This document shows positions 3,526-64,000 of a stretch of DNA of 64,000 nucleotides, piece after piece (within the stretch, counting starts at the first letter, position 1; each line of letters opens with the position of its first letter). Below the pieces are notes generated by a model. It had not been told where the DNA came from. It was given only the letters and a program-made list of their open reading frames with translations, and did no database searches. This DNA is from Bacteriovoracaceae bacterium UBA4573 (GTDB lineage: Bacteria > Bdellovibrionota > UBA1018 > UBA923): NCBI GenBank assembly GCA_002387735.1, contig DGKJ01000029.1:5015-69014 (forward strand), in the 5' to 3' direction. Both the position numbers and the translations under genes were made by a program.

Positions 3526-4047
3526 ATGAGCGACCCAACATTTATTTACACCATCGAAGAAATCGGAACTGGAATTCATGAGCTTCGCCTAGAGGGAACA
3601 CTCAACGAAGACGTAAACTTGGGTGAAGTAGCCGCGTCGGTCATTTCCCTTAAAGAACATTTGCAATCGCTCTCGATTGATCTCAGTCAAATTCGCATGA
3701 TCAATTCGTGCGGAATTCGTGAATGGATTCTTTTTCTGGAAGACATGGCGACCGTAACTAAGGTGCAGTTCAGTCGAGTAGGAAAACTATTTGTCGAACA
3801 AGCTAGCACTGTTCCGAACGTACTCGGAAAACCTGGCACTCACGTTTATAGCATTGAACTTCCCTACTATTGCACCAAGTGCGACGCTGCTTCGAATATT
3901 TTTCTTGAGACCTCAAAAATTCCTTTAGTAAATGGCCAGCCTAAGGCCCCTCAAAAAAAATGTCATCGTTGTGGCGAAGCACTTGAGATCGACGCATTTG
4001 AAGAAGAATATTTAAGCTTTCTTAAATACATGAAAGCAAAAAAATAA
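3526..4047 (+). CDS. STAS-domain (anti-sigma-factor-antagonist-like) protein with C-terminal zinc ribbon (two CxxC pairs)
   Basis: LRLEGTLNED...IDLSQIRMINSCGIREW matches the STAS/SpoIIAA core (L.GELD...DLS.V.F.DSSGLG) with the Ser at the phosphorylation position. C-terminus CTKC...CHRC...EEEYLSFL. Paralogous to the 12588..13055 product. Confidence 0.6.
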   Translation: MSDPTFIYTIEEIGTGIHELRLEGTLNEDVNLGEVAASVISLKEHLQSLSIDLSQIRMINSCGIREWILFLEDMATVTKVQFSRVGKLFVEQASTVPNVLGKPGTHVYSIELPYYCTKCDAASNIFLETSKIPLVNGQPKAPQKKCHRCGEALEIDAFEEEYLSFLKYMKAKK

Positions 4048-4651: not shown

Positions 4652-5539
4652 ATGCTGACACACATGCGCCGCTACTTTTTGTTTTTCGTGGTGAACATTG
4701 GAATCGTATTAACGATTTCGTTGGTCCTAAATCTCCTAGGAGTATCACCCTATATTGAGGCGCGTGGCCTCAACATGGAATCTCTGGCGATCTACTGCTT
4801 AATCTGGGGTATGGCCGGGGCGTTTATTTCACTCGCCATCTCTCGCATCATGGCCAAAATGATGATGGGTGTAAAAGTAATTGACCCAATGACGCGCGAT
4901 AGTGAGCTTCAATGGCTCGTATCCACCACCCATGATTTTGCAAAAGCCGCTGGTCTGCGAAAAATGCCCGAAGTTGGTATTTACGAAAGCCCCGAGCTCA
5001 ATGCCTTTGCTACCGGCCCGACTAAAAATCGCGCGCTCGTTGCGGTATCAACTGGGCTTTTACGCCGCATGAATCGGTCGGAAATCGAGGGAGTTTTAGC
5101 CCATGAGGTTTCTCATATTTCCAATGGCGACATGGTGACGATGACGCTCATTCAAGGAATCATGAACGCGTTCGTCATGTTTCTTGCTCGTCTCATTGCA
5201 TTTGCGCTGACTCAGAACATGAAAGACGAAAGTCGCCCAATGGCTAGAATGTTTATAACCTTGGGATTAGAAATGGTGCTCGCCATCGTGAGCGCGATCG
5301 TCGTTGCCTACTTTTCACGCAAGCGCGAATTCCGGGCCGACCATGGCGGAGCGGTGCTGTCTGGCCGAGAAAATATGATCGCCGCGCTCCGTGCTTTAAA
5401 ACGCAATTTTCAACCACTTGACCCTCGCGGTGAGGCCCTTGCGACTCTCAAAATTTCAACTCGAAGTTCGTTTGCGGCTTTCTTAGCGACTCACCCGCCG
5501 CTTGAAGACCGCATTCGCAGGCTGGAACAATACCATTAA
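4652..5539 (+). CDS. htpX: Zinc metalloprotease HtpX (peptidase M48)
   Basis: Near-identical motif block to E. coli HtpX: ELNAFATGP...LVAVSTGLL...EGVLAHEVSHISNGDMVTMTLIQG (HExxH). Four TM segments. 295 aa. Confidence 0.85.
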   Translation: MLTHMRRYFLFFVVNIGIVLTISLVLNLLGVSPYIEARGLNMESLAIYCLIWGMAGAFISLAISRIMAKMMMGVKVIDPMTRDSELQWLVSTTHDFAKAAGLRKMPEVGIYESPELNAFATGPTKNRALVAVSTGLLRRMNRSEIEGVLAHEVSHISNGDMVTMTLIQGIMNAFVMFLARLIAFALTQNMKDESRPMARMFITLGLEMVLAIVSAIVVAYFSRKREFRADHGGAVLSGRENMIAALRALKRNFQPLDPRGEALATLKISTRSSFAAFLATHPPLEDRIRRLEQYH

Positions 5540-9780: not shown

Positions 9781-11712
9781 GTGGTTTTCCGGTTGTTCCA
9801 ACAGGGCGTCGCAGTTGGCGGCGCCCTGTTTTTTTTACTTACAACGCAAGTCAGTATCGCCTTTTCGCAAAACCTTCCCACTTCTGAACGAATGCGGACC
9901 TTGTCGAATGAACGCTACTGGCATTTGTTGATGCACTATCGAAAAAACTTGTTCGGAGGTTATCGTTCCGAGGCCGACGGACTAGAGTTTTTTCTGGCAC
10001 CAGACGGTCGAACCGATCCTTACTCAGAACTGGTGGCCAATGTGCGCGCGTTTTTGCAGCCGGAACCGGTAAAAACCATTGGTCCGCTCAAACAACATCC
10101 AAGTTGTGCGTTTCCCGAACGCCACCGCTATTTAAAAGAACAATTGGGTTTGGCTACGCCTGTTGTCAAATGTCCTGACTTCGAAGCGTGGAGGCCCCGT
10201 TTTTCACCCTCTGGTGCTACGCTGGTATTTGCCTCTGCCTATTTGAATAACCCGGCATCAATGTTTGGACATACGTTTCTTCGAATAGATTCAAAACCTA
10301 GAATTGATCACACCAAGAAAAACGATCTTCTCGATTACGGCGTAAACTATTCTGCGAAAACTGGTGACGACGGAGGAATTACTTTTGCCGTTCTAGGCCT
10401 TATCGGTGGGTACCCAGGATTTTTTTCGTTACTCCCCTACTTCGAAAAAGTTCAGGAATACTCCGACGTCGAGAGCCGCGATCTTTGGGAATACCCACTC
10501 CATCTTGAACCCGAACAAATTCACCGAATGATCGGACACATTTGGGAACTCGGCAGTACTTATTTTGATTATTTTTTTTTCGACGAGAACTGTTCCTACC
10601 ACTTACTTTCACTTCTGGAAGTAGCCAACCCGAACTGGCACTTAACCGACGAGTTTTTTTACTGGGTGATTCCAAGCGACACAGTTCGAGTGCTAGCCAA
10701 GGTCCCAGGCGCACTCGGCCCCCCCACCTTTCGCCCCTCGCTCCAACGTCGACTTGAGCGCCAGTATGAGGACCTAAACCCAACTGAACTTGCGCAGTTC
10801 GAACATGCTCGCGACACCCAATTTAAGTTGAAAGGAAACGAATCGGTGGCGGTTCTCGATGTTTTGATCGATCAACAGAAATACGATCTAATGCGAAACC
10901 AACGAAACGAGACGGACCTCGACAAACAATTGCGCCGCGAACTTCTGCTGGCCCGCGCCAAATCTCTTGCAGTTTCCGATCAGAAATATTCCGGCCGAAT
11001 CGATGCCTGGCATTCCGCTGCAGTTAGCAACCGTCCGGACCATGGCGTGCACACCGCCAAACTTTCAGTATACGGCGGCTCGTTTCGAAAAACGGCATAC
11101 TATGGTCTGCAAATACGGCCGGTGTACCACGACTTGTTTGATCAAGACGCCGGCTATCTTGCATTCTCCGAGCTAACCATAGGACGCGTAAACCTCAGAA
11201 TATATCCCAGTGAAAAACGCGTGAGGTTACACTCTGCACATATCGCCGAAGTCACTTCGCTTGCGCCTTCAGATGCGCTCGGAAGCCGTCTGTCTTGGAG
11301 TGCAAGCGGTGGTTTAGTGTCGCCACGCGATGTGGCATGCCGCAATTGTAATGCCTTGGCCGTGGAAGGTGGCGCCGGTGAGAGCTTTTGGCTTTCGCCG
11401 CGTCAAAGTGGAATATTTTACGGCTTACTAAAAATTACTGCTCAGTACAGCGGTTGGTTCGATGCGAATATACGATTCGGTCCACTGGTAGACACCGGTG
11501 CGCTATTTAGTATTAGTGACCAATTAAAAACCGGGCTGCGGGCTCGGTTCACCTATTTTCCGACGCAAAAAATTCGCTGGTCGTTTGAACCCACTTTCAC
11601 CATGGGTTGGTTGTTCGCCAACCAAATGGAGTTTCGCTTTGAGCAAACTTGGACAGCCACGAAAGAAATTCACGGTTTTGACATGAATGGAGCGCTCGCC
11701 TGGTACTTTTGA
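9781..11712 (+). CDS. Large secreted hypothetical protein (possible DUF4105/Lnb-like N-domain plus beta-rich C-terminal half)
   Basis: GTG start 8 nt after upstream stop. N-terminus reads as a signal peptide (VFRLFQQGVAVGGALFFLLTTQVSIAFS). Alternative ATG at 9892. Conserved-looking HTFLRID...GYPGFF...ENCSYHLL block. Confidence 0.5.
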   Translation: MVFRLFQQGVAVGGALFFLLTTQVSIAFSQNLPTSERMRTLSNERYWHLLMHYRKNLFGGYRSEADGLEFFLAPDGRTDPYSELVANVRAFLQPEPVKTIGPLKQHPSCAFPERHRYLKEQLGLATPVVKCPDFEAWRPRFSPSGATLVFASAYLNNPASMFGHTFLRIDSKPRIDHTKKNDLLDYGVNYSAKTGDDGGITFAVLGLIGGYPGFFSLLPYFEKVQEYSDVESRDLWEYPLHLEPEQIHRMIGHIWELGSTYFDYFFFDENCSYHLLSLLEVANPNWHLTDEFFYWVIPSDTVRVLAKVPGALGPPTFRPSLQRRLERQYEDLNPTELAQFEHARDTQFKLKGNESVAVLDVLIDQQKYDLMRNQRNETDLDKQLRRELLLARAKSLAVSDQKYSGRIDAWHSAAVSNRPDHGVHTAKLSVYGGSFRKTAYYGLQIRPVYHDLFDQDAGYLAFSELTIGRVNLRIYPSEKRVRLHSAHIAEVTSLAPSDALGSRLSWSASGGLVSPRDVACRNCNALAVEGGAGESFWLSPRQSGIFYGLLKITAQYSGWFDANIRFGPLVDTGALFSISDQLKTGLRARFTYFPTQKIRWSFEPTFTMGWLFANQMEFRFEQTWTATKEIHGFDMNGALAWYF

Positions 11713-12572
11713 AACGCCGAATCAGTATCTGCTACTTCATTTCCGTTCTGGTTGCCGTCAGCGTTGGCGGCTGCGGCGGTTTTTTTTACCATCCTGATCG
11801 TGAAAAATATTTTGACCCCCATAAAAATGGTTTTAACCCGCAAGACGTTTGGTTCACTGCTGGAGACGGCGCCAAGCTCCACGGGTGGTGGTTCGCGGTG
11901 CCAAATGCTGTAGGCACGATCGTGCAGTTTCATGGCAACGCCGAAAATCTAACGAGCCATTTCGCCAGCCTGGCTTGGCTTACTCGGGAACGCTACAATC
12001 TTTTTATTTTCGACTACCGAGGTTACGGGCAATCTCCGGGCAACCCCGACGCGGCGGGGCTATACTTAGACGGCATGGCTGCGCTCGACACCGCGTGGGA
12101 TTTGCATCAGCGCACGTCTAGGTCGTCGAACCGTTTCGTGGTCTTTGCCCAAAGCTTGGGAGTAATCGTCGCAACACGTGCCTTTTCGGACTTTCAACAC
12201 CGCGACGCCACTTGGATGCTAGTGTTGGACTCTGGGTTTTGCTCTTTTAAAGACCTCGTGCAGGAAAAAATGGCAGACATCTGGATCACCTGGCCTTTCA
12301 GTCCGCTTGGCCGCCTAAGCGTTTCGGATCGATACGCCTGTCGTTCAGTGTTACCTTCACTTCGCGTTCCAACCCTTGTCATTCACGATGAAAACGACCC
12401 GGTCGTTGATATTCGCAATTCTGAAATGATTTTCGACGCACTCACCCAACAAGAAAAACATTTCTGGCGAATTAGCGAGGGGCGCCACGTCGCGGTATTC
12501 GCGATTGATCAACCGAATCGAAGAAAACTCTTTTTAGACCTCTTGTCGTCTCGCCTCGCTCGGGTAAAATGA
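11709..12572 (+). CDS. Alpha/beta-hydrolase-fold lipoprotein
   Basis: Lipobox-like VSVGGC. HG oxyanion motif (VQFHGNAEN). GxSxG nucleophile elbow (AQSLG). 287 aa. Confidence 0.7.
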   Translation: MKRRISICYFISVLVAVSVGGCGGFFYHPDREKYFDPHKNGFNPQDVWFTAGDGAKLHGWWFAVPNAVGTIVQFHGNAENLTSHFASLAWLTRERYNLFIFDYRGYGQSPGNPDAAGLYLDGMAALDTAWDLHQRTSRSSNRFVVFAQSLGVIVATRAFSDFQHRDATWMLVLDSGFCSFKDLVQEKMADIWITWPFSPLGRLSVSDRYACRSVLPSLRVPTLVIHDENDPVVDIRNSEMIFDALTQQEKHFWRISEGRHVAVFAIDQPNRRKLFLDLLSSRLARVK

Positions 12573-12587
12573 ATCAAAGAGGAATAC

Positions 12588-13055
12588 ATGCTCACCGCAA
12601 CCAAAGAAAATCGCGATGGTAAACAATTTGTTTTGTTAGGTGGCACAATCGACGAGACCGACGATTTGGCAAAAGTGATTGGAATGCCGACCGGCCCCTT
12701 GATTGTTTCTTGCCGAGATTTAACGCGAATAAATTCAGTCGGCGTAAAAAATTGGATGAAGTACTTTTCACAACTCCAACAAAATAAATTGCAGTTTGAA
12801 TTCGAAGAACTTTCGGTAGCGCTGGTCGAGCAAGTTAATATTGTCAAAAACTTCGCTTGCGGCGGCCCAGTGCTTTCGATCGCCATGCCGTTTCGGTGTA
12901 ATTCGTGTCAAACGGGATTAACCGGGGCCATCAAGACAGAAGTCGTACGATCGATGAATTTCAATATTGCACCGGTTCAGTGTCCAAAATGTGGCGGATC
13001 GGCGGAATTCGACGACGTGGCCGAAGAATATTTTTCGTTTCTCACGCGCAGCTAG
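12588..13055 (+). CDS. STAS-domain protein with C-terminal zinc ribbon (paralog of 3526..4047)
   Basis: LLGGTIDETDDL...CRDLTRINSVGVKNW (STAS core, conserved Ser). C-terminus CNSC...CPKC...AEEYFSFL. Same architecture and C-terminal EEYxSFL motif as the 3526..4047 product. Confidence 0.6.
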   Translation: MLTATKENRDGKQFVLLGGTIDETDDLAKVIGMPTGPLIVSCRDLTRINSVGVKNWMKYFSQLQQNKLQFEFEELSVALVEQVNIVKNFACGGPVLSIAMPFRCNSCQTGLTGAIKTEVVRSMNFNIAPVQCPKCGGSAEFDDVAEEYFSFLTRS

Positions 13056-13066
13056 AGGGTCGCACC

Positions 13067-14047
13067 ATGAGCGTCAATAAGCTAGTACTGGTGTCTTCGG
13101 GCCCTGAGGATCTCGACTTCGCACTAAAAGTTTGTCAGCGTTTTCGAATTCAGTTGGCCGTGCCTAAATCCTGGCATGAACTACTAGAGACTTTGAGTGA
13201 ATCCTACTCCACCTATATTTTCTGGGCCCTCGGTGATTTGGAACTTCACGACGCCTCTCACCCGTTTTTCATCGGAGCCATTGAAGAGGCACTCACCGGC
13301 CAAGTCGACCCTTCTCGAGTTTTCGCTCTTACGACTAAACCCATACACCACTACCAAGATATGTTTGAAAAGTTCCCCACGATCAAGGGCCGCTTTCAGC
13401 ACAATTTGATCCGCAATTATCCGCCGGGCTGTGAAATTCTTTACGCTAGGCTACTTGAATACTGTTCTGCTCCCGAGCCATCAGGGCTTCAAAAGCTTTT
13501 TGATCCTACGACTAAGATTCAACGACTCGCGCTCAAGAATTCTTCCCAAAAAAACTCCGCGGTTTCCGCCCTCGAAAAAACTCTGCTTAAAACCGGATTC
13601 GATGAACGAATTGCGTCCCGCATTGCGCAGGCGACTGACGAACTACTGATGAACGCAATATTCGACGCATCACGCGACTCCTCAGGGGTGGCCAACCGTC
13701 AAATGCTCGATCGCCGAGTGCATTTCGCCTTTGGCCCTCAAGAACCGGTGGAAATGGAGTTCGGCCTCAATCAAGAATATTTTGCGATCTGCGTCACAGA
13801 CCATTTCGGCTCCTTAAAAAAGGAAACTCTATTTAAATTTCTTCATCAAAATTACCAAGATAAGGACTACCAGCTCCGTAAATACGGTCCTGGAGCCGGT
13901 CTCGGGCTCTACGGCATTGTGGCGGGAGGTCTCAGCCTGCTCATATCCTGCAAACCCGGTAAAAGAACCGATGTAGCGGTGTTTTTCCCACGGGTGAAGA
14001 GCTATCGGGAGTTTCGAAAGAGTTTTCAGTTTACAGCTTTTTTTTAA
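13067..14047 (+). CDS. GHKL-ATPase-domain protein resembling anti-sigma-factor serine kinases (RsbW/SpoIIAB-like) with ~190-aa N-terminal extension
   Basis: ATG 13067 with GAGGGT SD 7 nt upstream. N-box-like ATDELLMNAIFDA. G1-like VTDHFGSL. G2-like GPGAGLGLYGI. N-terminal region KLVLVSSGPEDLDFALKV resembles a degenerate receiver. Confidence 0.5.
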   Translation: MSVNKLVLVSSGPEDLDFALKVCQRFRIQLAVPKSWHELLETLSESYSTYIFWALGDLELHDASHPFFIGAIEEALTGQVDPSRVFALTTKPIHHYQDMFEKFPTIKGRFQHNLIRNYPPGCEILYARLLEYCSAPEPSGLQKLFDPTTKIQRLALKNSSQKNSAVSALEKTLLKTGFDERIASRIAQATDELLMNAIFDASRDSSGVANRQMLDRRVHFAFGPQEPVEMEFGLNQEYFAICVTDHFGSLKKETLFKFLHQNYQDKDYQLRKYGPGAGLGLYGIVAGGLSLLISCKPGKRTDVAVFFPRVKSYREFRKSFQFTAFF

Positions 14048-14065
14048 AGGCACACAATATAAGCT

Positions 14066-14779
14066 GTGACAGGACGTCGCGTTTGGGCCCTTGGGCTCGC
14101 ACTATCGGTTGCTCTCCTTGGTATTTTCTTCTTCGAATCAGAGTCTTCGTCCCCCCCTGCAACCGCGGAGGTGGCGTTTTCTACTCACAACGCGCAACGA
14201 GCGCCGGCGGCCGAAACTCTTGCGCCGACTGAGGCCACGCAATTTGAAACCAGTGGTTGGGCTCCAGTGGTTGTTCCCGCGCCCGACAACGCCCGTCTGC
14301 TTGCCGAGCCTAACGCTTCTAGTGATTCCCAAGTCGCGGCTCTTCACACCTTACTACAGAGTGCGATTTTCGAGTCTGCCGATCTGGAAACACTTGCCCA
14401 CATTGCCCGCACTACGAGTCAGAATAAAACTCGGTACCTGGCGATAGAAGCCATTGCTCGCGCCGCAGATGCTCGCGCAGAAGCAATACTAATTGGCCTT
14501 TTCGAAGACCTCGACGACCCAACTTACTCTCAGGAAACGCGCTCTCAAATACTAAGCAGCATTGAGCCAAGCGATGCTAGTTCCAGCGGAAGTCGTTTTT
14601 TACTTACTCTTTTTTTCCGGGCCGACTTACCAGATTCACTCAAGGAACAAGCCCTTCAGGCACTCGTCGCAGTTTCAATTTCTGACGAATCCGCGATCGA
14701 AGTCTTGGTCCAGCAACTTCCCCAGACTTGGGCCGAACGCTTTATTCTGGCGACTCGGGCGATTCGAGGACAATCATGA
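14066..14779 (+). CDS. Secreted hypothetical protein with HEAT/armadillo-like helical repeats
   Basis: Signal peptide RRVWALGLALSVALLGIFF. Repeated helix-turn-helix stretches (LAHIARTTSQNKTRYLAIEAIARAADARAEAILIGLFEDLDD...). Confidence 0.4.
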   Translation: MTGRRVWALGLALSVALLGIFFFESESSSPPATAEVAFSTHNAQRAPAAETLAPTEATQFETSGWAPVVVPAPDNARLLAEPNASSDSQVAALHTLLQSAIFESADLETLAHIARTTSQNKTRYLAIEAIARAADARAEAILIGLFEDLDDPTYSQETRSQILSSIEPSDASSSGSRFLLTLFFRADLPDSLKEQALQALVAVSISDESAIEVLVQQLPQTWAERFILATRAIRGQS

Positions 14780-16392
14780 CAACTATCAAACGTTATTTGC
14801 GCGCCGCTACGGGCCTTTGTTTCGGTGTATTTTCGATTTTTATGACCGTTCCGGCAAAGGCTGAACACTCGGTGGTTGATTACGGTGAAGCCGTGTACTG
14901 CATTCGAGGCGATGGCGCTCAGTGTACTCCTCAAATGATCGCCAGTCCGGCGCATCGTAAAACTCTGTTACTTCCGACGGGCTATACCGCAAGCGAACGT
15001 GAGGTTTTTCGCCAAGATTTTTACCGGCTTGTTAGCAACCTTGCCCTTGCCGGCACTTCGATCTACGCGGGCGACTATGCCGATCGCATGGTATATGTGG
15101 GTTTTTGGATTGCAAGCCCTCCACTGGAAAGTGGCCAAGCTACTTTTTCAGCTCGCATTGTTCCCCACCCGATTCGAAGCAGCGCCTTAACAATGGACCA
15201 AAGCAAGGTCCACAAGTTAATCGAAAGTCTCAGAAAACTGGAACCGCAGTTATTCACTCCTTGGGCCGCAATCGTCATTTACAACACCGATCGAACGGAC
15301 GTGACGGCCAACGCCTCTCCGCCCTCTTTTATCCAAAAACCCTACGGCCTCGCACGCGTCACACGGGGAGACATTTTAGAGAGTCCCTATATACCGGTTC
15401 ACGAGCTCGCACATGCCGCTCTGAATTTTGTGGACGAGTACACCGAACCTGGACTTGAGAACATGTCGATTCGCTCGATTGACCGTTTAACTCCGCTCGC
15501 CGTGTTATCGGGCGGCTGGTCGGGCTGGGTACGAGCTGTGCGAAATCTCTTTGGGGTGTACTCCTACCGAATTTCAGAGGTACTCGCGGCCAACGGCAAC
15601 GACAATGTCGACGTCACCAAACACCCCACTCGGGTCGCGACCCCGGGGTTTCGCGCCGAAACCTATGAGTACGAAGGCGGAATGTTTTTTGGCCGCGGCA
15701 CTTACCACGACGCGGGTCAAAATTTAATGAACGACGACCGAGCAAACCAAGGAGCCGACGACGGATTCGCCTACGCTCATTCGCCAGCTCAGCAACGGGT
15801 TATTCGTACGGCCTTTCGATTTCCTTACCGGGCCGGGCGCCCCAATGATCGCATTCGAGCTGCCGGACCTCGCGGTAGTTGGAGAGCGGAATGGGGCAAT
15901 ACGACACAACTCATGTTGTTCGACGCTGATAAACACCACCGTTTTCAACCTACCGTTCGTTACGACGTACAAATCGGTTGGTACGACCGCGACTGGAAAA
16001 CTTGTTGGGGCGGCGGCGTAGTGCCCTACCCGTGTTACGAAAATAAATGGGTCACTTTTCAGAAAAGCCAATATCCTTCGGCTCGCAATATAGATTTAAA
16101 TCACACTGCACTTTTCAAGGTTGCAAAGCTATTTCAAAAACTGGCCTGCCACCTTGGAATCGACTCCATCAAACCCAACTCTGCGAGCCAGGGGAAATAC
16201 GATCTCTGTTCACAAGATCTCGACTCGGTCACTGCCAGTTTTCTGCCCACCATGGTGTTTCCGATGCCTTACCAGGACGTATCCATTCCAGCCAAACAGT
16301 GGCTCACCAAATACCACTGGAGGTTTCGCACCTACAACGGCTCATACCATTCCGGCTGGACTGGTTGGAGCTCCTTCACGAGAGCATTATAA
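14776..16392 (+). CDS. Secreted protein with HExxH motif (putative zinc metallopeptidase)
   Basis: ATGA overlap with upstream gene. Signal peptide MTTIKRYLRAATGLCFGVFSIFMTVPAKA. HELAHAAL motif followed by acidic/Glu residues downstream. 538 aa from ATG 14776. Confidence 0.45.
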   Translation: MTTIKRYLRAATGLCFGVFSIFMTVPAKAEHSVVDYGEAVYCIRGDGAQCTPQMIASPAHRKTLLLPTGYTASEREVFRQDFYRLVSNLALAGTSIYAGDYADRMVYVGFWIASPPLESGQATFSARIVPHPIRSSALTMDQSKVHKLIESLRKLEPQLFTPWAAIVIYNTDRTDVTANASPPSFIQKPYGLARVTRGDILESPYIPVHELAHAALNFVDEYTEPGLENMSIRSIDRLTPLAVLSGGWSGWVRAVRNLFGVYSYRISEVLAANGNDNVDVTKHPTRVATPGFRAETYEYEGGMFFGRGTYHDAGQNLMNDDRANQGADDGFAYAHSPAQQRVIRTAFRFPYRAGRPNDRIRAAGPRGSWRAEWGNTTQLMLFDADKHHRFQPTVRYDVQIGWYDRDWKTCWGGGVVPYPCYENKWVTFQKSQYPSARNIDLNHTALFKVAKLFQKLACHLGIDSIKPNSASQGKYDLCSQDLDSVTASFLPTMVFPMPYQDVSIPAKQWLTKYHWRFRTYNGSYHSGWTGWSSFTRAL

Positions 16393-43576: not shown

Positions 43577-45610
43577 TTAATCTTCTCCCAAAACGATTTT
43601 GCATCCGCCAGCCCCTGCGTCGTCAACCGGACTTTTTGCGGCACTTGGGCCAGTACCCTTGGTATTGTCCTTACGTCTAGGTCCACTGCCGCCTAGTTCG
43701 TGGCTTAACATCGCTCGCCCCTGAGTGACTCGCGATACGGGGGCGTAACTGAGAACCAACGCCAGGGCGCGTTTAATACGTTCGACCCGCTCGACAATCA
43801 AACTAGCGGTCGCATCCGCTTCGGTGCCGGATTCGGTCGATTCCTGAGATACTTCCGTCGTCGCATTGAGTTGCTGCGCGGTTGAGTCTAACGCCTCAAG
43901 GCGCGCCGCTAACATACCAAACATGCCCTTTGGAAAGCCGGTACGACTAGCGATTCCCGCATTCAACGGTGAGCGCGCTACGAATCGCTGACGATCTTCC
44001 CGATAGCCCAAATATTTTAAAGTCTCTTCGATGGTCTCAACGCCGCGAGTGTTGCTCCCCGAAACAAAATCGACCACATCTTTCCAAAGCTCCTCGACGA
44101 TCATCTGAGCCAATAGGGTTTCGAGCGTCTGATATTTGCCCAGCGTCGAAGCAATTAAAAACGACTCAGGTAACTCTAACTTATTGTTGTCTTGCGAACG
44201 CTGCAGAACTTCTTCCATGTACTTCGTGACCGCAAGATACAAGTGCAATGCTTTAAGATATGGGGTCGTATAAATCTTATGAATCGGGTCGTTTTCGAAA
44301 AAACGATACTGCACGATTCGATAAATCGGAAGCGGATGGGTTCCATTGAGCAACTGCTCCATCAGTGTGGGATCTTCAGACACCTGAATCGAAATTTCTT
44401 CGGCCACTTTCAAAGCGGCTTCGCGACTAGCCGCGCCTACCAAGAGAAGGTCCGCATTTTCTGCTGCCGTCGTCGAAGTTGAGATCTGACCAAGGCGATC
44501 AGAGGTCACCTCGCAAGAGCGTCCGTATTTTTCGAGGTAAGCCTTGATTTGCTCGATCATGTTGTTGATCGCCTCGGGCGAGGCCGCGTTAGCCTGCGGC
44601 ACTTCTACGGCCTCTAGTGGAAACAAACTTTGGGAACTAGAGCGCAGCAAGTCTTTTTTAACTCTCTTGCGAATAAACGTTGAAAGTTTCTGACTAGCGT
44701 CGAAGAGATCGATTCCCATGTCGCCCTGTTTTAAACGAGCATGGAAAGGTTCACTCATTTTAACGGAACCAGAGTGGGAATGGTGCCAAGCGCGGGCCAG
44801 CTGTTCCGAAAGAGTCGCTTTCATCGATGCGCGCAAAGCAGCCACCACCTCCGCGGTTTCCGGACGTGCCTGCTGTTCCATGTCGGCGATTTGTTCTTCA
44901 ATCGAAGCTTGCAGCACGCTGACGAGCATCATTTGATTGAGTACGTGTTCGCCACGAATGTGCCCGAGTTCGTGTCCGATCACCGCCTCCAGTGCGTCGG
45001 CCGCAATCTGCTCGCGAGTTTTGCTTTCACCAGCGTTTTTCGCCAACACTTCGGCCGAATGGTTGAAGGATTGAATTAATCCCTGGAGAACTACAAAGCG
45101 GATCATCTTCCCGGTGCTAAAGGTATAAGCATTAATCTCCGGGGTATTGGCCACAAATACGACTGCGTCCTTGCGAGCTGCCGGCGAAAAGTCGAGTTTT
45201 TCGGAAACACGCTCAACCATGGCCATGATGTCAGCGTGTTGAAGCCCCGAGGCCTTCGCAAAGGCACCCGAATACACCAATGTGGTTTTTTTGATGAGTT
45301 CACCTAAATAACGTTCGGCCTCGGCCCGAATCACTCCGTAGCTGGGGAGAGACTGAAGCTTGTGCGTCACTTCAGCGTCCAGGCCATCACGAATGTCTCC
45401 CATGAACTGGTCGTCCAAAAAACGCTGGGTCATTGGATGCGACGCAAATACGTCGAGCACGGTCCTCAAGAACTTCTCGTGATCGGCAGTCCAGGGGGCC
45501 TCGGAGAGCTTAATTTTGCGAAACGGTCCCTGCTGAGACTCGTTGGCTCGGGAAACAACCGGAGCTGCCACTAGTAGAGACGCCAAAACTGCCAAAAATG
45601 TGAATTTCAT
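43577..45610 (-). CDS. Secreted M48-family metallopeptidase-domain protein with ~400-aa C-terminal extension
   Basis: Signal peptide MKFTFLAVLASLLVAAPVVSRA. INAYTFSTGKMIRFVVLQGLI...VIGHELGHIRGEH (HExxH plus downstream E), as in Ste24/HtpX-like M48 peptidases. Confidence 0.6.
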   Translation of the reverse strand: MKFTFLAVLASLLVAAPVVSRANESQQGPFRKIKLSEAPWTADHEKFLRTVLDVFASHPMTQRFLDDQFMGDIRDGLDAEVTHKLQSLPSYGVIRAEAERYLGELIKKTTLVYSGAFAKASGLQHADIMAMVERVSEKLDFSPAARKDAVVFVANTPEINAYTFSTGKMIRFVVLQGLIQSFNHSAEVLAKNAGESKTREQIAADALEAVIGHELGHIRGEHVLNQMMLVSVLQASIEEQIADMEQQARPETAEVVAALRASMKATLSEQLARAWHHSHSGSVKMSEPFHARLKQGDMGIDLFDASQKLSTFIRKRVKKDLLRSSSQSLFPLEAVEVPQANAASPEAINNMIEQIKAYLEKYGRSCEVTSDRLGQISTSTTAAENADLLLVGAASREAALKVAEEISIQVSEDPTLMEQLLNGTHPLPIYRIVQYRFFENDPIHKIYTTPYLKALHLYLAVTKYMEEVLQRSQDNNKLELPESFLIASTLGKYQTLETLLAQMIVEELWKDVVDFVSGSNTRGVETIEETLKYLGYREDRQRFVARSPLNAGIASRTGFPKGMFGMLAARLEALDSTAQQLNATTEVSQESTESGTEADATASLIVERVERIKRALALVLSYAPVSRVTQGRAMLSHELGGSGPRRKDNTKGTGPSAAKSPVDDAGAGGCKIVLGED

Positions 45611-47470: not shown

Positions 47471-47771
47471 TGGCACCGAAAACTTTAATCCCGGTGAGCA
47501 CCAACGCGTAAAGACTGCCACCAAACACCAGCACGCCCAAAACCCAGCATACGGCTGGCCCCATCAAGTACAATTCTTTAGTTTTACCCGTGGCCGCGGC
47601 AAGACCAACAGCGACTAACGCCAAAGCGTGAAACATTTGGTACCGTACCGCCGTTTCGAACACTTCCAACATTCTAGGCTCAAGCCGCGTTCGCAGAGCG
47701 TGTGCTCCAAAGGCCCCGAGGGCTACAGACAAAAATCCAAAAATACTCCCGATCACCAATATCCAACGCAT
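47388..47771 (-). CDS. DUF423-family small membrane protein
   Basis: 4 TM, 127 aa. N-terminus MRWILVIGSIFGFLSVALGAFGAHAL typical of DUF423 (YgdD-like). TAATG overlap with upstream phhA-like gene. Confidence 0.6.
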   Translation of the reverse strand: MRWILVIGSIFGFLSVALGAFGAHALRTRLEPRMLEVFETAVRYQMFHALALVAVGLAAATGKTKELYLMGPAVCWVLGVLVFGGSLYALVLTGIKVFGAITPIGGVLYLAGWTWLTVVAVRAAISS

Positions 47772-49618
47772 TACGCCGCGCCCTTAGACAGCGCGCTTGC
47801 GTCTGCAAGCAGTTCTCGACCCCGCGCAATCATTTCTGCTTTTTCTACCGACCCGCGGGCGATTTCGTCGAGTCGTTTGTTAATGTTACCGATCCAAGAC
47901 TGCACCCGATGTGCGTTAGAGGTTTTCGCGTCTAGATACCCTGCAATCTCCAGAAGTTCCAACCGCAACAACCAATCTCGGGGATATTTGCGATCAAGTT
48001 TTTCTACTACTCGGTCGAGTCTCACGCCCGTAGCTTCAGGAAGGTTTGCCAGGCTTGCTTTCTTTCTTAATACCGACTCCCGAAATGCTCTAACTTCAGC
48101 GTACAAAACATTAAGCTCTGCGTTTTCCTTCGTAAGATTAGTTTTGGGTTTCGACGGACGCTGGGTATAACCTCCCATCGACGCAACGTAGGACGAACGA
48201 TCCGGTGCGTGACCGAATACGCTTTTAATCGTATTGCCTCGCACCCAGTCGTATTCGCCCCAAGCCGGCTCAAACAGTATGCGGTCGCCCCACTGCACTT
48301 TACAGTCAGTGAAGGTCTTCACGAAACCGCGAGCCCCTGGCTTTGGTACTCCGAGAATTTTTACTCCTGAAACAAAAGTAATTTCGGTTTTTCCCGTAGA
48401 TAGTTTGCGTTCACTTTCGATAGGTCCAACCGGGCAACCAAACCCTTGAGGGTGCCGGGCGACGCCGTGGCCTTTAAGTTCTTTTTCACGAATAGCAAGT
48501 TGGCAGGGGCCTTCAAAACGCAAATAGGCTGGCGACCCATCGCGCGCGCAAAGGGTTTCTACTAATTTTCCGCCGATTTGCACGCCTGAATCAAGCTCTA
48601 CTGTACACACGGCCCGCGAACGTTGAGCTTTCTGCAAACCTGTAATTCCACCCGTTTTAAAAGCCATAGTGCGAGCGAACTGCTCCAACACGACTCCCAG
48701 CGCCTCGAAATTAGGTGTTACGAACAACTGCGGTTGCGGTTTGGTAATATCGTAATGTTGCTGAATACAATTAAGGTCAAACGGAAGCTTTTTTACCGCT
48801 CGATCGAAACAATGAAAAGACTCCGAAAGCGAAGACAACAACCCCGCCCCATAAATTTTTGGATTTTTTAAATCACCTACTAAACCGTATTCAGTTGTCC
48901 ACCAGGCCATGCGCGAAAGCTCGGCAGCTTCACTCGTGTGATCGATAAGTGAGAGAGCCTTTTGCAACTCACGCTCTGCCTTCGCAATGTCGGCCGACGT
49001 CGAACTAGGATTTTCTTTAATATCCGAAAGTTCGCGAATGGCGTCGTACAAGTTGAGATCATGCTGTGCGATGATCGCCTTTCGGGACACCTCGCCGTAT
49101 TGTTTAAGGTATTTTGCGTAGCTTCGATCCGCAAGAATAGGAGCGTGGCCCGCGGCCTCGTGTACTATGTCCGGAGCTGGTGTATAGCCCAAGTGTTCGA
49201 GCGTGCGCATGTCACAGGCGATCGGCAACACACCAATCGAAAGAAACTCTAAAAACACGGCCGGCGGAATAAACCCAACCACGGGTACCGCACGCCAACC
49301 AAAGCGTTTGAGTTTTGCATCCATTTCGCTAATCAACGGAATCCGCTCGATACAAATTCCTGTTTCCTCGAGCCCCTCTAGATATTTTTCATGGGCCTTT
49401 TTTGCAAAAAACCGTTGAGATACCCGCAAAATAAAACGCCAACTCGCATGATCAATGAAAGTGTAAAGAGACGGATCTTGGGCGGCCACAAACGCCGTAA
49501 GGTGAGTAGGAATCGCAATCGTCCGCACCGCTTTTTTGCGGGCGAGTACCCGGGTCTTTTTTTTCTTAACGAGCGAACGCTTTACAGGTTTCGACTTTGC
49601 TTTTTTTCGAGAACGCAT
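47771..49618 (-). CDS. Aromatic-amino-acid (phenylalanine-4-) hydroxylase-like protein with basic N-terminal and ~250-aa C-terminal extensions
   Basis: Core collinear with bacterial PhhA: ...ERIPLISEMDAKLKRFGWRAVPVVGFIPPAVFLEFLSIGVLP...PDIVHEAAGHAPILADRSYAKYL...WWTTEYGLVGDL...IYGAGLLSS. Iron ligands are the two His in HEAAGH, plus the downstream ...WWTTEYGL... Glu. N-terminal KKAKSKPVKR... and a C-terminal Gly/Cys-containing extra domain. Confidence 0.7.
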   Translation of the reverse strand: MRSRKKAKSKPVKRSLVKKKKTRVLARKKAVRTIAIPTHLTAFVAAQDPSLYTFIDHASWRFILRVSQRFFAKKAHEKYLEGLEETGICIERIPLISEMDAKLKRFGWRAVPVVGFIPPAVFLEFLSIGVLPIACDMRTLEHLGYTPAPDIVHEAAGHAPILADRSYAKYLKQYGEVSRKAIIAQHDLNLYDAIRELSDIKENPSSTSADIAKAERELQKALSLIDHTSEAAELSRMAWWTTEYGLVGDLKNPKIYGAGLLSSLSESFHCFDRAVKKLPFDLNCIQQHYDITKPQPQLFVTPNFEALGVVLEQFARTMAFKTGGITGLQKAQRSRAVCTVELDSGVQIGGKLVETLCARDGSPAYLRFEGPCQLAIREKELKGHGVARHPQGFGCPVGPIESERKLSTGKTEITFVSGVKILGVPKPGARGFVKTFTDCKVQWGDRILFEPAWGEYDWVRGNTIKSVFGHAPDRSSYVASMGGYTQRPSKPKTNLTKENAELNVLYAEVRAFRESVLRKKASLANLPEATGVRLDRVVEKLDRKYPRDWLLRLELLEIAGYLDAKTSNAHRVQSWIGNINKRLDEIARGSVEKAEMIARGRELLADASALSKGAA

Positions 49619-55147: not shown

Positions 55148-55528
55148 ATGGGTAAGAAACTATTTGTCGGCAACCTTCCATTTTCGGCAACTGACGAGTC
55201 GCTTGCGCAAATTTTCGCACAAGTCGGCACCGTTGAGTCCGCGAAGGTGATCACTGACAAAATGTCCGGGCGCAGTAAAGGCTTTGGATTCGTAGAAATG
55301 GCCGACGATGCGCAAGCAGCCGATGCCGTTGCGCGCTTCAATGGCATTGAACTCGAAGGCCGACCACTCACAGTAGCTGAAGCTAAACCGCAGGAGCCCC
55401 GCCAAGATCGTGGCGGCCGCGGTGGTTTTGGCGGTGGCGGTGGTCGCGGTGGTTACGGCGGCGGTGGCGGCCGTGGCGGCGATCGCGGTGGTTACGGCGG
55501 CGGCGGCGGTGGCCGCGGTCGATACTAA
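55148..55528 (+). CDS. RRM-type RNA-binding protein with RGG/Gly-rich C-terminal tail
   Basis: RNP-2 LFVGNLPF. RNP-1 KGFGFVEM. Tail (GGGGRGGYGGGGGRGGDRGGYGG). GAGGAGA SD 5 nt upstream. Confidence 0.85.
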   Translation: MGKKLFVGNLPFSATDESLAQIFAQVGTVESAKVITDKMSGRSKGFGFVEMADDAQAADAVARFNGIELEGRPLTVAEAKPQEPRQDRGGRGGFGGGGGRGGYGGGGGRGGDRGGYGGGGGGRGRY

Positions 55529-61654: not shown

Positions 61655-62797
61655 TCAGACGTACTGACCTTTCTTTATCTTATCTACGATGATTTTTTCT
61701 GGCATCGTCGGGTCCTTCGGATCAACCGTAAAGTACGCCTGTTGTTCGCAACGACGTTTGTTTTTAAGCAACCAACGAAGAATTTCAGAACACCCTTTAT
61801 TGCGTTTATCTTGAAAAAAGGGGTCATTTTTAAGTGCGTCGTCGGCTTTCTTTAGGGCGCGCACCTCTTGAGCGTCATTCTCTTTTACGGGATAGTCGTT
61901 TAGATCATATTTTTTAATGTCTTCTGGCAACACCCCTAAGAAATGAACATCGGGGGCCGAGTAGTCGGAGTTTCGAATAAGACTCGCTGCGGACCCCGCC
62001 TTAAGTGTGCGATAAATGTTTTGCATGGTGTACGCGTCAAGGTCGCCAAAGAAAAACATCGGCGTCCGCAATTGGTCCTGAATGAGTTTAGCCCAGCCGC
62101 GCACGGCGTTTGACGGCACCCCTTGCGCACCAATCACGATAGCATTGTGCCGTTTGGTGAAACCATTGGCCACGAGCGTATTGGCGGTACCTTCCGATTC
62201 GACAATAAGAGCAAAATCCACTTTCTTTTTTGTCGTCAGTTTTAAGTTTTGCGGTCGATTTTTTGGCTGAAAGGGACTTGTTCCGAGCTTAGAAAGGTCG
62301 ATCACTGCCTTTTCGCCGTCCGGTAAAGTTTCCGTAACAACCAAATGCTGGGAATAGGTTTGCCCGCCTCGGTCGTTTGCGTAGCAATTCACTTCTTCGC
62401 GATAAATCTCTAACATTTCGCAGATGAAGTCGATCGTAGCGTCACTTTCGTCTTGATCCCCGAAATCCAGCGGTTTGAGTTTTGGATTGTGCTTAATCTC
62501 GCCTTTCGAAATATAGTACAACTCGCGTTTGGTATTTACGCTCCCGGTATCGAGATTTCGTAAAAGAATCTCCAGCATGAAAATTGCGCGCGACATTTTT
62601 TTTACAGAACTTACGTTCAGTTCTGTACGAACCTTTTTGTTACCGGGCTGCAAATAACCGACCTTGTGATCGTATCTCGCGTTGTCCAATGCGCATTTGG
62701 TGGCCAGCAGCACTGGACGTTTGGCCTTCTCGAGATCACTCAACAAGCGGCTACAAAGTTCTCGCGACATTTTTGGTATCGTTTGGTCTTTATTCAT
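61655..62797 (-). CDS. DNA topoisomerase VI subunit A / Spo11-like (5Y-CAP + Toprim)
   Basis: Catalytic-Tyr motif TKRELYYISK in winged-helix region. Toprim Glu (ALIVESEGTANTL) and DxD (FFFGDLDAYTMQNI). 380 aa, typical of Top6A. Confidence 0.7.
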   Translation of the reverse strand: MNKDQTIPKMSRELCSRLLSDLEKAKRPVLLATKCALDNARYDHKVGYLQPGNKKVRTELNVSSVKKMSRAIFMLEILLRNLDTGSVNTKRELYYISKGEIKHNPKLKPLDFGDQDESDATIDFICEMLEIYREEVNCYANDRGGQTYSQHLVVTETLPDGEKAVIDLSKLGTSPFQPKNRPQNLKLTTKKKVDFALIVESEGTANTLVANGFTKRHNAIVIGAQGVPSNAVRGWAKLIQDQLRTPMFFFGDLDAYTMQNIYRTLKAGSAASLIRNSDYSAPDVHFLGVLPEDIKKYDLNDYPVKENDAQEVRALKKADDALKNDPFFQDKRNKGCSEILRWLLKNKRRCEQQAYFTVDPKDPTMPEKIIVDKIKKGQYV

Positions 62798-62805
62798 GTG
62801 TTCCT

Positions 62806-64000
62806 CTACAAATTGAAACTAGTTTGACCGCCGCCATCACTGTCGTCGTCGTCACTGCTAGCTCGTACGGCAGCCGGCTTAGCTTTTTCACGGGCACCGC
62901 TTTTAGATTTTTTCTGTTTTCCGTTTTCGGAGCCGTCACTATCCCCGCCTTCGTCGTCGTCCGGCTTTTTATTTTTGTTACTTTTGGCGATCGCTGCGGT
63001 CACAATCGCATCTGCTTCTTTTAACTCGGTTTGTGCTTCCCGAGCATCACGACCAAGAATTTTTACCAACCCATCCTCAGCGCGTTTTTTGCGAGCTTCA
63101 GGAGCATTGGTGATCCGACAAAGACCATCGACTAAAATTGGGCAAAACTGTTCGATATGCCGCAGTTTTTCTTCGAGATCATTGGCTTTGACTTCGCGCC
63201 GAATATGCCGTGAAAGTCGTTGCCCCGCTTGTATAAGCGCTCTTCGAATTTCTTCTACTAGCTCTTCACTCGCGTCGATGGTTTCTTTGGATGCATTTTT
63301 AAATTTAATAAACGGCGACACCACCGACACGGCCATGACGTAGGGGCCCGAAGGCAACCCACCGCGCGGCTGCGCCAGTTGATATGCGCGCCAATTTACA
63401 CTTTCAATTGCTTTAACTATTGCACATGCCGCTTTATCGAACTGTAGCGGCACCCGATTAGCGAAACGCAAAACCTGAACCGGAGTTTCGGCGTCATCGC
63501 CTACCGCGCGGTTTAACAATCGCGCAATCGCCACTTCAACCTGAACGGGTTTAAAGTCCGCGATGGTGGGCTTGCGAGAAACCACCGAAAAAAAATCTAC
63601 TTCGCCCAATCTTTGAATTGCTTTCGAGAGCGACGCCTCGCCGATTGCAAGCACCGATCGAGTGCTAGGCGCCATGAGCGGAGTATTTTGAATTGCACTG
63701 AAAAGTTCTCTAAACTCTGCTTCACTGAGTGCATCAACGTTCTTTTCAAACAATGCGGGCTTTAGCCCAGCTTTCTTTAATTCGGCAATCGATGCATCGC
63801 TGACTCGCGAAAAACCTTTTTTTAGCCAAGCCGAAGTTTTCACCCGGCCAAACAAGTGAGAGTGCGCAATGAATTCGCCCAACTTCATGGTGTGGGGGTG
63901 CGGTTCGGTGGCTTGAGGAATTTCTGGGATCTCTTTGGTCAGACGTTCAAGTTTTTGCACGCCCAGTTCAGGAAGTTTATAGCTAAGCGTTATGTGGGGG
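62806..64000 (-). CDS. DNA topoisomerase VI subunit B, C-terminal part (H2TH + transducer). Gene continues beyond the window edge
   Basis: Transducer-domain block VLRFANRVPLQFDKAACAIVKAIESVNWRAYQL...GPYVMAVSVVSPFIKFKNASKETIDASEELVEEIRRAL matches the Top6B transducer. The GHKL ATPase N-terminal half is not in the window. Charged low-complexity C-tail. Confidence 0.65.
   Translation of the reverse strand, partial: PHITLSYKLPELGVQKLERLTKEIPEIPQATEPHPHTMKLGEFIAHSHLFGRVKTSAWLKKGFSRVSDASIAELKKAGLKPALFEKNVDALSEAEFRELFSAIQNTPLMAPSTRSVLAIGEASLSKAIQRLGEVDFFSVVSRKPTIADFKPVQVEVAIARLLNRAVGDDAETPVQVLRFANRVPLQFDKAACAIVKAIESVNWRAYQLAQPRGGLPSGPYVMAVSVVSPFIKFKNASKETIDASEELVEEIRRALIQAGQRLSRHIRREVKANDLEEKLRHIEQFCPILVDGLCRITNAPEARKKRAEDGLVKILGRDAREAQTELKEADAIVTAAIAKSNKNKKPDDDEGGDSDGSENGKQKKSKSGAREKAKPAAVRASSDDDDSDGGGQTSFNL

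Follow-up and report, generated by a model that had tools for sequence, protein, structure and literature searches.

A divergent STAS-zinc-ribbon protein and a GHKL-type kinase form a conserved gene pair, probably a partner-switching module, in Bdellovibrionota

Results

Genes at the locus

The window analysed here is a 64,000-nt stretch of DNA from Bacteriovoracaceae bacterium UBA4573 (DGKJ01000029.1 positions 5,015-69,014; all coordinates below are window positions). It contains two adjacent genes, A and B, that probably encode the antagonist and the serine kinase of a partner switch of the RsbV/RsbW (SpoIIAA/SpoIIAB) kind, with a HAMP-PP2C membrane protein as its phosphatase and a FecR-like protein as the partner of that phosphatase (Table 1). 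Six genes are referred to by the letters A to F, all of them on the plus strand: A and E are paralogs, B is the putative kinase gene, C and D follow B, and F follows E. An earlier note on this DNA had described A and E as STAS-zinc-ribbon paralogs. It had paired A with the product of B as antagonist and kinase, had taken the N-terminal half of B for a degenerate receiver, and had counted two tightly coupled secreted genes, C and D, as part of the arrangement. The HAMP-PP2C phosphatase and the FecR-like gene, which complete the module, had been missed.

B starts with an ATG at 13067, 11 nt past the TAG of A, and its ribosome-binding site, GAGGGT, overlaps that stop; this placement agrees with the earlier note, and the length of the product, given there as 327 amino acids (aa), is corrected in Table 1. 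NCBIfam gave no match for A, B, C, D, E or F. The nearest database proteins are 100% identical and are labelled 'hypothetical proteins' (Oligoflexia, Bdellovibrionota metagenome-assembled genome, MAG). Promoter and terminator scans around both gene groups stayed at chance level and are uninformative about operon structure.

Table 1. Genes of the predicted module and their neighbours, in window positions.
Feature	Position	Strand	Basis
A: predicted STAS-zinc-ribbon antagonist, 155 aa	12588-13055	+	fold model, conserved Ser50, four Cys
B: receiver-like domain plus predicted GHKL serine-kinase domain, 326 aa	13067-14047	+	fold, invariant box residues
HAMP-PP2C (SpoIIE-type) transmembrane phosphatase, 638 aa	14-1930	-	Pfam SpoIIE 7.8e-36, HAMP 1.8e-10
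FecR-like single-pass membrane protein, 516 aa	1960-3510	+	neighbour-family profile E 9e-11
E: second STAS-zinc-ribbon paralog, 173 aa, Ser in MINSCG	3526-4047	+	A-family hidden Markov model (HMM) E 6.7e-55
F: stand-alone PAS-like protein, 172 aa	4047-4565	+	sub-threshold PAS_9 E 0.0018
C: HEAT-like protein, N-terminal hydrophobic anchor, 237 aa	14066-14779	+	sub-threshold HEAT_2 E 0.0018
D: secreted HExxH...DEY protein, 538 aa	14776-16392	+	motif; Peptidase_M64 16.7 bits, cut-off 26

Two STAS-zinc-ribbon paralogs, A and E

The products of A and E share their motifs along the whole chain: RINSVG, C104xxC107...C132xxC135 and an EEYFSFL end in A, and MINSCG, CTKC...CHRC and EEYLSFL in E. BLASTP aligned the two over their full length, zinc ribbon included, at 28% identity (E 3e-14), whereas A is just 9-16% identical to solved canonical STAS proteins in structural alignment, and the best canonical STAS sequence match of the A-family profile is to RsbV at E 6e-4. 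Given this full-length alignment, A and E are far closer to each other than either is to canonical STAS proteins, and the paralogy proposed in the earlier note stands: both are STAS proteins with a zinc ribbon.

An AlphaFold2 model of A, made with 20 sequences, had a mean predicted local distance difference test score (pLDDT) of 95.4. In structural comparison A has the STAS fold, the roughly 95 aligned residues being the STAS core (residues 1-95). A Cys4 zinc ribbon is inserted between this core and the last helix; it occupies approximately residues 97-141 (12876-13010) and consists of extra beta-hairpins bearing the four cysteines, followed by two short helices. Residue conservation was scored over 50 relatives of A and 84 relatives of B. 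Ser50 of A (codon 12735-12737) is the first residue, or N-cap, of helix 2 in the model and is the predicted phospho-acceptor; it is invariant, as the reading of the earlier note requires, and so are Gly52 and Trp56. We take Ser50 to occupy the position of the phosphorylated Ser58 of SpoIIAA. The four cysteines, which presumably bind zinc, are at least 90% conserved, and the acidic tail is conserved as FDDxxEEYFxFL. At the level of sequence, the link of the A family to STAS appears weak but real: 16 of the 50 relatives match Pfam STAS weakly and below threshold (best E 2e-4), and two database relatives of A bear a precomputed PF01740 match.

We considered the zinc ribbon as a nucleic-acid binder and set this role aside, the region being acidic, with a median isoelectric point (pI) of 4.8 over the 50 relatives (A as a whole has a pI of 5.2). 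The GHKL domain of B is basic (pI 9.6). The combination of an acidic ribbon and a basic kinase domain makes a protein-docking surface more likely than nucleic-acid binding as the function of the ribbon.

The STAS-zinc-ribbon family is large and unannotated

A single-sequence homolog search with A found 5 matches only, and a profile search found 20 in a word-indexed database. An exhaustive search of 1.84 billion cluster representatives with the A profile found 4,874 proteins at E<=1e-3, 4,054 at E<=1e-10 and 1,117 at E<=1e-30, and among the matches listed the whole domain is covered, ribbon included. The family is large, with at least 4,800 clusters at 50% identity. Its domain may stand by itself, be repeated in tandem, or be joined to Hanks kinase, FIST or PDZ domains; many members are about 700-750 aa long with two tandem copies, the commonest multidomain form among the top 150 matches. 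Examples of tandem STAS-zinc-ribbon domains fused to a Hanks-type Ser/Thr kinase, or accompanied by FIST or PDZ domains, were seen at L062:5303-7552 (+) and in P0144-P0241. Matches of the A and B families all stay under the curated cut-offs of the Pfam and NCBIfam models, which is why genes of both families are annotated as hypothetical.

B carries a very divergent GHKL kinase domain

The model of B (84 sequences) has a pLDDT of 93.0 and a predicted template-modelling score (pTM) of 0.91, and shows two domains. The C-terminal one, residues 148-326 (13508-14047), is a GHKL domain with its N box at 13637-13669, G1 at 13799-13816 and G2 at 13892-13909. Foldseek, proposed in the earlier note as a check, aligned it with SpoIIAB and RsbW at template-modelling (TM) scores of 0.74-0.87, normalised on those proteins. 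The B relatives are otherwise 25-45% identical, and the residues invariant among all 84 are D191 E192 xx M195 N196 A197, D245 xx G248, G278 x G280 and T301, that is, the ATP-site residues of the N box (191-197), G1 (245-248), G2 (278-280) and G3 (T301). The N, G1 and G2 boxes picked out earlier in this half of the protein are among them. When a profile of the C-terminal domain is aligned with the catalytic domains of VanS and WalK, its N, G1, G2 and G3 residues fall on the corresponding boxes; the E-values are weak. In sequence searches of the PDB, no SpoIIAB or RsbW chain was recovered with the profile of full-length B, and the C-terminal profile gave weak histidine-kinase matches only, so the assignment of B to the SpoIIAB/RsbW type rests on its fold and its conserved residues. 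B is a very divergent branch of the GHKL kinases.

B-type GHKL domains also terminate larger proteins (L072:5907-8576, L063:2775-4961, L056:5469-7733 and L079:6096-8579, all +), where their partners are PAS-Hpt-HATPase_c, a canonical receiver domain, PEGA repeats or a 7TMR-DISM membrane sensor. The kinase domain is reused in other signalling architectures outside Bdellovibrionota.

The receiver-like domain of B lacks the acceptor Asp in this lineage

Residues 1-140 of B (13067-13486) have the flavodoxin-like (beta-alpha)5 fold of a receiver. At the acceptor position, residue 54 at the end of strand 3, an Asp is kept in 75 of the 84 B-family members, and the B-family profile aligns this Asp with the phospho-Asp of a solved receiver. 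B of this window has Ala54 instead (codon 13226-13228), and its two closest relatives (P0002, P0003) have Thr and Ser; this looks like a recent, clade-specific loss. Elsewhere in the domain, Ser10 replaces the first acidic residue (77/84), Arg116 replaces the conserved Lys (81/84), and a Ser or Thr at residue 89 takes the position of Thr87 in CheY (69/84). Pfam Response_reg matches none of the 84 members at E<0.01. The term 'pseudo-receiver' is right for B of this window, with its Ala54, Ser10 and Arg116; in the family as a whole, a residual role as phospho-acceptor is conceivable, and the suggestion of the earlier note that the kinase may be regulated through a pseudo-receiver has to be qualified to that extent. 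With no acceptor Asp, this domain of B must work unphosphorylated, and dimerisation or docking is its probable role.

Gene linkage ties A to B across related genomes

A scan that took one genome for each species found relatives of B at 80 loci, which hold 83 B genes. Most belong to Bdellovibrionota (Bacteriovoracaceae, Oligoflexia); the GHKL half of B is also present in Myxococcota, Silvanigrellales and Bradymonadia. The six-frame open reading frames (ORFs) of all loci were searched with the A-family HMM. Directly upstream of B and on the same strand, an A-family gene was found for 36 of the 83 B genes; 3 further A-family genes are divergent from B and adjacent to it, and 13 are at other places in the flank, directly downstream of B among them. 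In an unclassified MAG the two are joined in one 510-aa ORF (L065:3156-4685, +), with the STAS-zinc-ribbon domain at residues 14-167 and the GHKL domain at residues 307-507; Pfam found nothing in this ORF. The fusion offers Rosetta-stone support for an interaction between A and B. The two are a conserved and functionally linked pair, which bears out the pairing first suggested from this one locus.

Among the other neighbours, the commonest is a phosphatase of about 640 aa with HAMP and SpoIIE (PP2C) domains, divergent beside A-B in about 28 loci, and a FecR-like gene of about 530 aa adjoins the phosphatase in about 22 of those. A four-gene cassette of FecR-like, HAMP-PP2C, STAS-zinc-ribbon and kinase genes is present in about 22 related genomes. 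In the window, the HAMP-PP2C protein has hydrophobic segments at about residues 18-48 and 290-319 around an extracytoplasmic region of about 240 aa; it is the ortholog of the phosphatase that adjoins A-B elsewhere and is the predicted phosphatase of the module. The profile that recovered the FecR-like protein was built from the neighbour family of 21 loci, a representative of which passes the Pfam FecR cut-off (27.4 bits versus 24). The window's protein has one hydrophobic segment, at residues 42-68, and is a probable co-sensor with the phosphatase.

E and F are a conserved pair associated with the same kinase family

The start of F overlaps the stop of E. Relatives of E lie divergent next to B in locus L005 and near B in L009 and L017; in the latter two the E-type gene is followed directly by an F homolog, 3-4 kb from the B gene. 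A PAS histidine kinase takes the position corresponding to F in L062. As in the window, E-F takes the usual A-B position beside the phosphatase in the 83%-identical relative L087; in both genomes A-B is found about 9 kb further on, behind housekeeping genes. E and F are a conserved pair associated with the kinase family of B. F was considered as a second kinase and rejected in this role, as B and F share no similarity. Directly downstream of E-F is a gene for an M48-family peptidase, 4652-5539 (+), in a position that is conserved in L087.

C and D lie outside the conserved module

C and D overlap by ATGA and are translationally coupled, as the earlier note had observed. C has one N-terminal hydrophobic segment, at residues 4-26. 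D has, by eye, a signal-peptide-like N-terminus, and a HELAH...DEY motif with HELAHAALNFVDEY present; no PDB sequence relative of D was found, and it is probably a distant, secreted M64-like metallopeptidase. Neither C nor D had a homolog in any of the 86 related loci examined, and in other genomes Maf and YggS (21-27 loci) or unrelated genes come after B. On these two grounds C and D are lineage-specific neighbours, and we rejected them as members of the A-B system; the part of the earlier proposal that included them in the arrangement falls away.

Other genes in the window

Just upstream of A, a protein with Lnb_N/DUF7840/DUF7843 domains and an alpha/beta hydrolase are encoded at 9781-12572 (+). 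This pair recurs a few kb from A-B in L061:1209-3999, and an Lnb-like gene lies near the cassette in L085:11151-13073; the co-occurrence could be a weak recurrent association or plain synteny.

Further along, 61655-62797 (-) encodes a bacterial Topoisomerase VI subunit A/Spo11-like protein (Pfam TOP6A-Spo11_Toprim 4.9e-36, TP6A_N 3.4e-13), and the B subunit may be encoded by the 384-aa ORF beside it, 62806-63960 (-). Topoisomerases of type IIB are seldom met in bacteria. The window also holds an unusually long M48-family peptidase of 677 aa with a partial M48 match only (43577-45610, -), a small RRM_1 RNA-recognition-motif protein of 126 aa (55148-55528, +; Pfam 2.2e-22), and a 615-aa protein (47771-49618, -) that twice matches part of the biopterin-dependent aromatic amino-acid hydroxylase domain (Pfam 2.5e-28) and is far longer than typical bacterial enzymes of that kind.

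Discussion

Proposed mechanism

The folds, the invariant catalytic and acceptor residues, the gene linkage and the fusion are direct observations; from them we infer the phosphotransfer, the zinc binding, the direction of the signal, the target and the roles of E and F. The GHKL domain of B would bind ATP and phosphorylate Ser50 of A, leaving phospho-A unable to bind B. Once the phosphatase and its FecR-like partner sense a signal from the envelope or the extracytoplasmic space, the PP2C domain would become active and dephosphorylate A. Unphosphorylated, acidic A would then bind the basic GHKL domain of B and displace the target that B holds. The most likely role of E, together with the PAS-like F, is that of a further antagonist feeding into the same kinase and phosphatase, comparable to RsbV1 and RsbV2 of Chlamydia.

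Relation to known systems

The Bacillus modules RsbV-RsbW-RsbU/RsbP and SpoIIAA-SpoIIAB-SpoIIE have the same core. Unlike them, the module described here has a Cys4 zinc ribbon on the antagonist, an additional receiver-like domain of 140 residues on the kinase, and a two-pass membrane HAMP phosphatase with a FecR-like protein; it has no linked sigma factor gene, and its similarity to the known proteins lies under Pfam thresholds. Closer in layout is the Rsb system of Chlamydia trachomatis, in which two STAS proteins, RsbV1 and RsbV2, share one RsbW and a transmembrane RsbU whose sensor domain is extracytoplasmic; the output of that system is something other than an alternative stress sigma factor (PMC8256260). 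The likeness lies in the two STAS paralogs, the single RsbW-type kinase and the transmembrane PP2C phosphatase; the chlamydial proteins, in contrast, are described as plain STAS-domain-only and RsbW proteins, and FecR-like and PAS-like partners are described only for the present module.

The architecture of B as such, a receiver plus an RsbW-like domain, has already been described, in LvrC of Leptospira (PDB 9qih; structure published in 2026) and TciR of Vogesella indigofera (published in 2025). In both, as in B, a single chain of about 300 aa begins with a receiver fold and continues with an RsbW-like Bergerat domain. Their receivers, however, are canonical and they have no STAS partner. The receiver of LvrC is phosphorylated at D53 by the histidine kinase LvrB, whereas that of B is degenerate; and V. 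indigofera, the organism of TciR, has no RsbV homolog, whereas B is linked to a STAS partner and a PP2C phosphatase. The cognate histidine kinase that marks Rec-Bergerat regulators finds no counterpart for B, in which the Asp is absent and which has no recurrent histidine-kinase neighbour.

SypE of Vibrio fischeri, an RsbW-like kinase with a receiver, acts on the STAS protein SypA and has a non-sigma output (PMC12826045). The HsbR-HsbA type is alike in these respects. Both types unite kinase, receiver and PP2C domains in one protein with a true phospho-acceptor receiver, whereas here the phosphatase is a separate membrane sensor and the Asp is absent. In the SiaABCD system of Pseudomonas aeruginosa, SiaC, a DUF1987 protein, activates the diguanylate cyclase SiaD (PMC8457831); the module differs from SiaB-SiaC in that no cyclase is linked to it, and its similarity to that pair is weaker than to RsbV/RsbW. 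An output other than a sigma factor thus has precedent in the SypE/SypA and Sia systems.

A full-text literature search found no description of a STAS protein or antagonist with a zinc ribbon or zinc finger, nor one for Bdellovibrio, and a review devoted to STAS-domain-only proteins says nothing of zinc or cysteine (PMC8256260). As far as we searched, no earlier description exists of a zinc ribbon on the antagonist, of a STAS-linked kinase with a degenerate receiver, or of FecR-like and HAMP-PP2C proteins as a pair.

Weighing the partner switch against its alternatives

Several observations weigh against a partner switch. The roles of A and B in it are predictions, drawn from folds, invariant residues and linkage, and the usual sequence models do not recover them: A and E have no match to Pfam STAS (PF01740) even at E<=1, and B scores 16.3 bits (E 0.0099) on HATPase_c_2 (PF13581), the model the earlier note had named for this domain, against a cut-off of 27.4, with just 6 of its 84 relatives reaching E<0.01. 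The G1 box of B reads D-x-F-G-S, not D-x-G-x-G. For 27 of the 83 B genes there is no A-family gene within 8 kb, and in the window itself A-B lies 10.6 kb from the phosphatase, with E-F in the position that A-B usually takes. The target is a further point. Pfam scans of the window's approximately 50 probable genes (a greedy longest-ORF call, scanned at differing E-value limits and leaving out the ORF at 62806-63960) found no sigma-factor domain, and neither a target nor a sigma factor is among the recurrent neighbour families of B loci. The cognate sigma factor that the earlier note had suggested looking for was found in neither place, and for this reason the output may not be a sigma factor. 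Finally, most of the family keeps Asp54, Ser/Thr89 and Arg116, so the receiver-like domain might be phosphorylated in other genomes, in which case the B family would be true response regulators.

This last point has its counterpart at the locus itself in a two-component reading, in which an unlinked histidine kinase phosphorylates the receiver domain of B and a sigma factor is released, with A as an accessory antagonist or unrelated to B. We regard it as very unlikely, given that the acceptor is replaced here and in the two closest relatives, that Ser10 stands in place of the acidic pair and Arg116 in place of Lys, that the family draws no Response_reg match, and that the recurrent neighbours of B loci are a STAS protein and a PP2C phosphatase, with no histidine kinase among them. 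The deviant G1 box and the sub-threshold Pfam kinase scores are what might be expected if B were instead a pseudokinase, a non-catalytic, ATP-binding anti-factor to which A simply binds, with control exerted through the zinc ribbon, for instance by thiol oxidation with release of zinc. Zinc-cysteine redox switches are known in ZAS anti-sigma factors, and the strong conservation of the four cysteines of A would suit such a control. Yet Ser50 of A is invariant, as are in B the positions of the Mg/ATP ligands and Glu192, the putative catalytic residue, although identity in these families is otherwise 25-40%, and a dedicated PP2C phosphatase, the most conserved neighbour, makes sense only if a phospho-protein exists; a pseudokinase is accordingly an unlikely explanation. 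Least credible to us is a four-gene operon in which A-B controls C and D or acts with them. All four genes share a strand, only 18 nt without a terminator-like site separate B from C, and C and D are coupled; however, C and D are missing from the 86 loci, where Maf/YggS or unrelated genes follow B, and the promoter and terminator scan gave no indication of co-transcription. In the closest relative (83% identity) the contig stops directly after B, which leaves the comparison of C and D to more distant loci.

We therefore favour the partner switch formed by A, B, the HAMP-PP2C phosphatase and its FecR-like partner. A bolder version of it, which we hold to be rather doubtful, is that the zinc ribbon would give the antagonist an output or a redox input of its own, and that the cassette would be a Bdellovibrionota-wide envelope-signal pathway with a non-sigma target, perhaps in surface or prey sensing.

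Significance

Partner switching is a main route by which bacteria answer a signal with a new state, and the components known so far are STAS and RsbW-type proteins of plain architecture. In the module described here this core appears to have been rebuilt with a zinc ribbon and a degenerate receiver, in a form that recurs in dozens of Bdellovibrionota genomes and has relatives in Myxococcota. Its recognition adds a candidate regulatory pathway in a predatory bacterial group about whose signalling little is understood.

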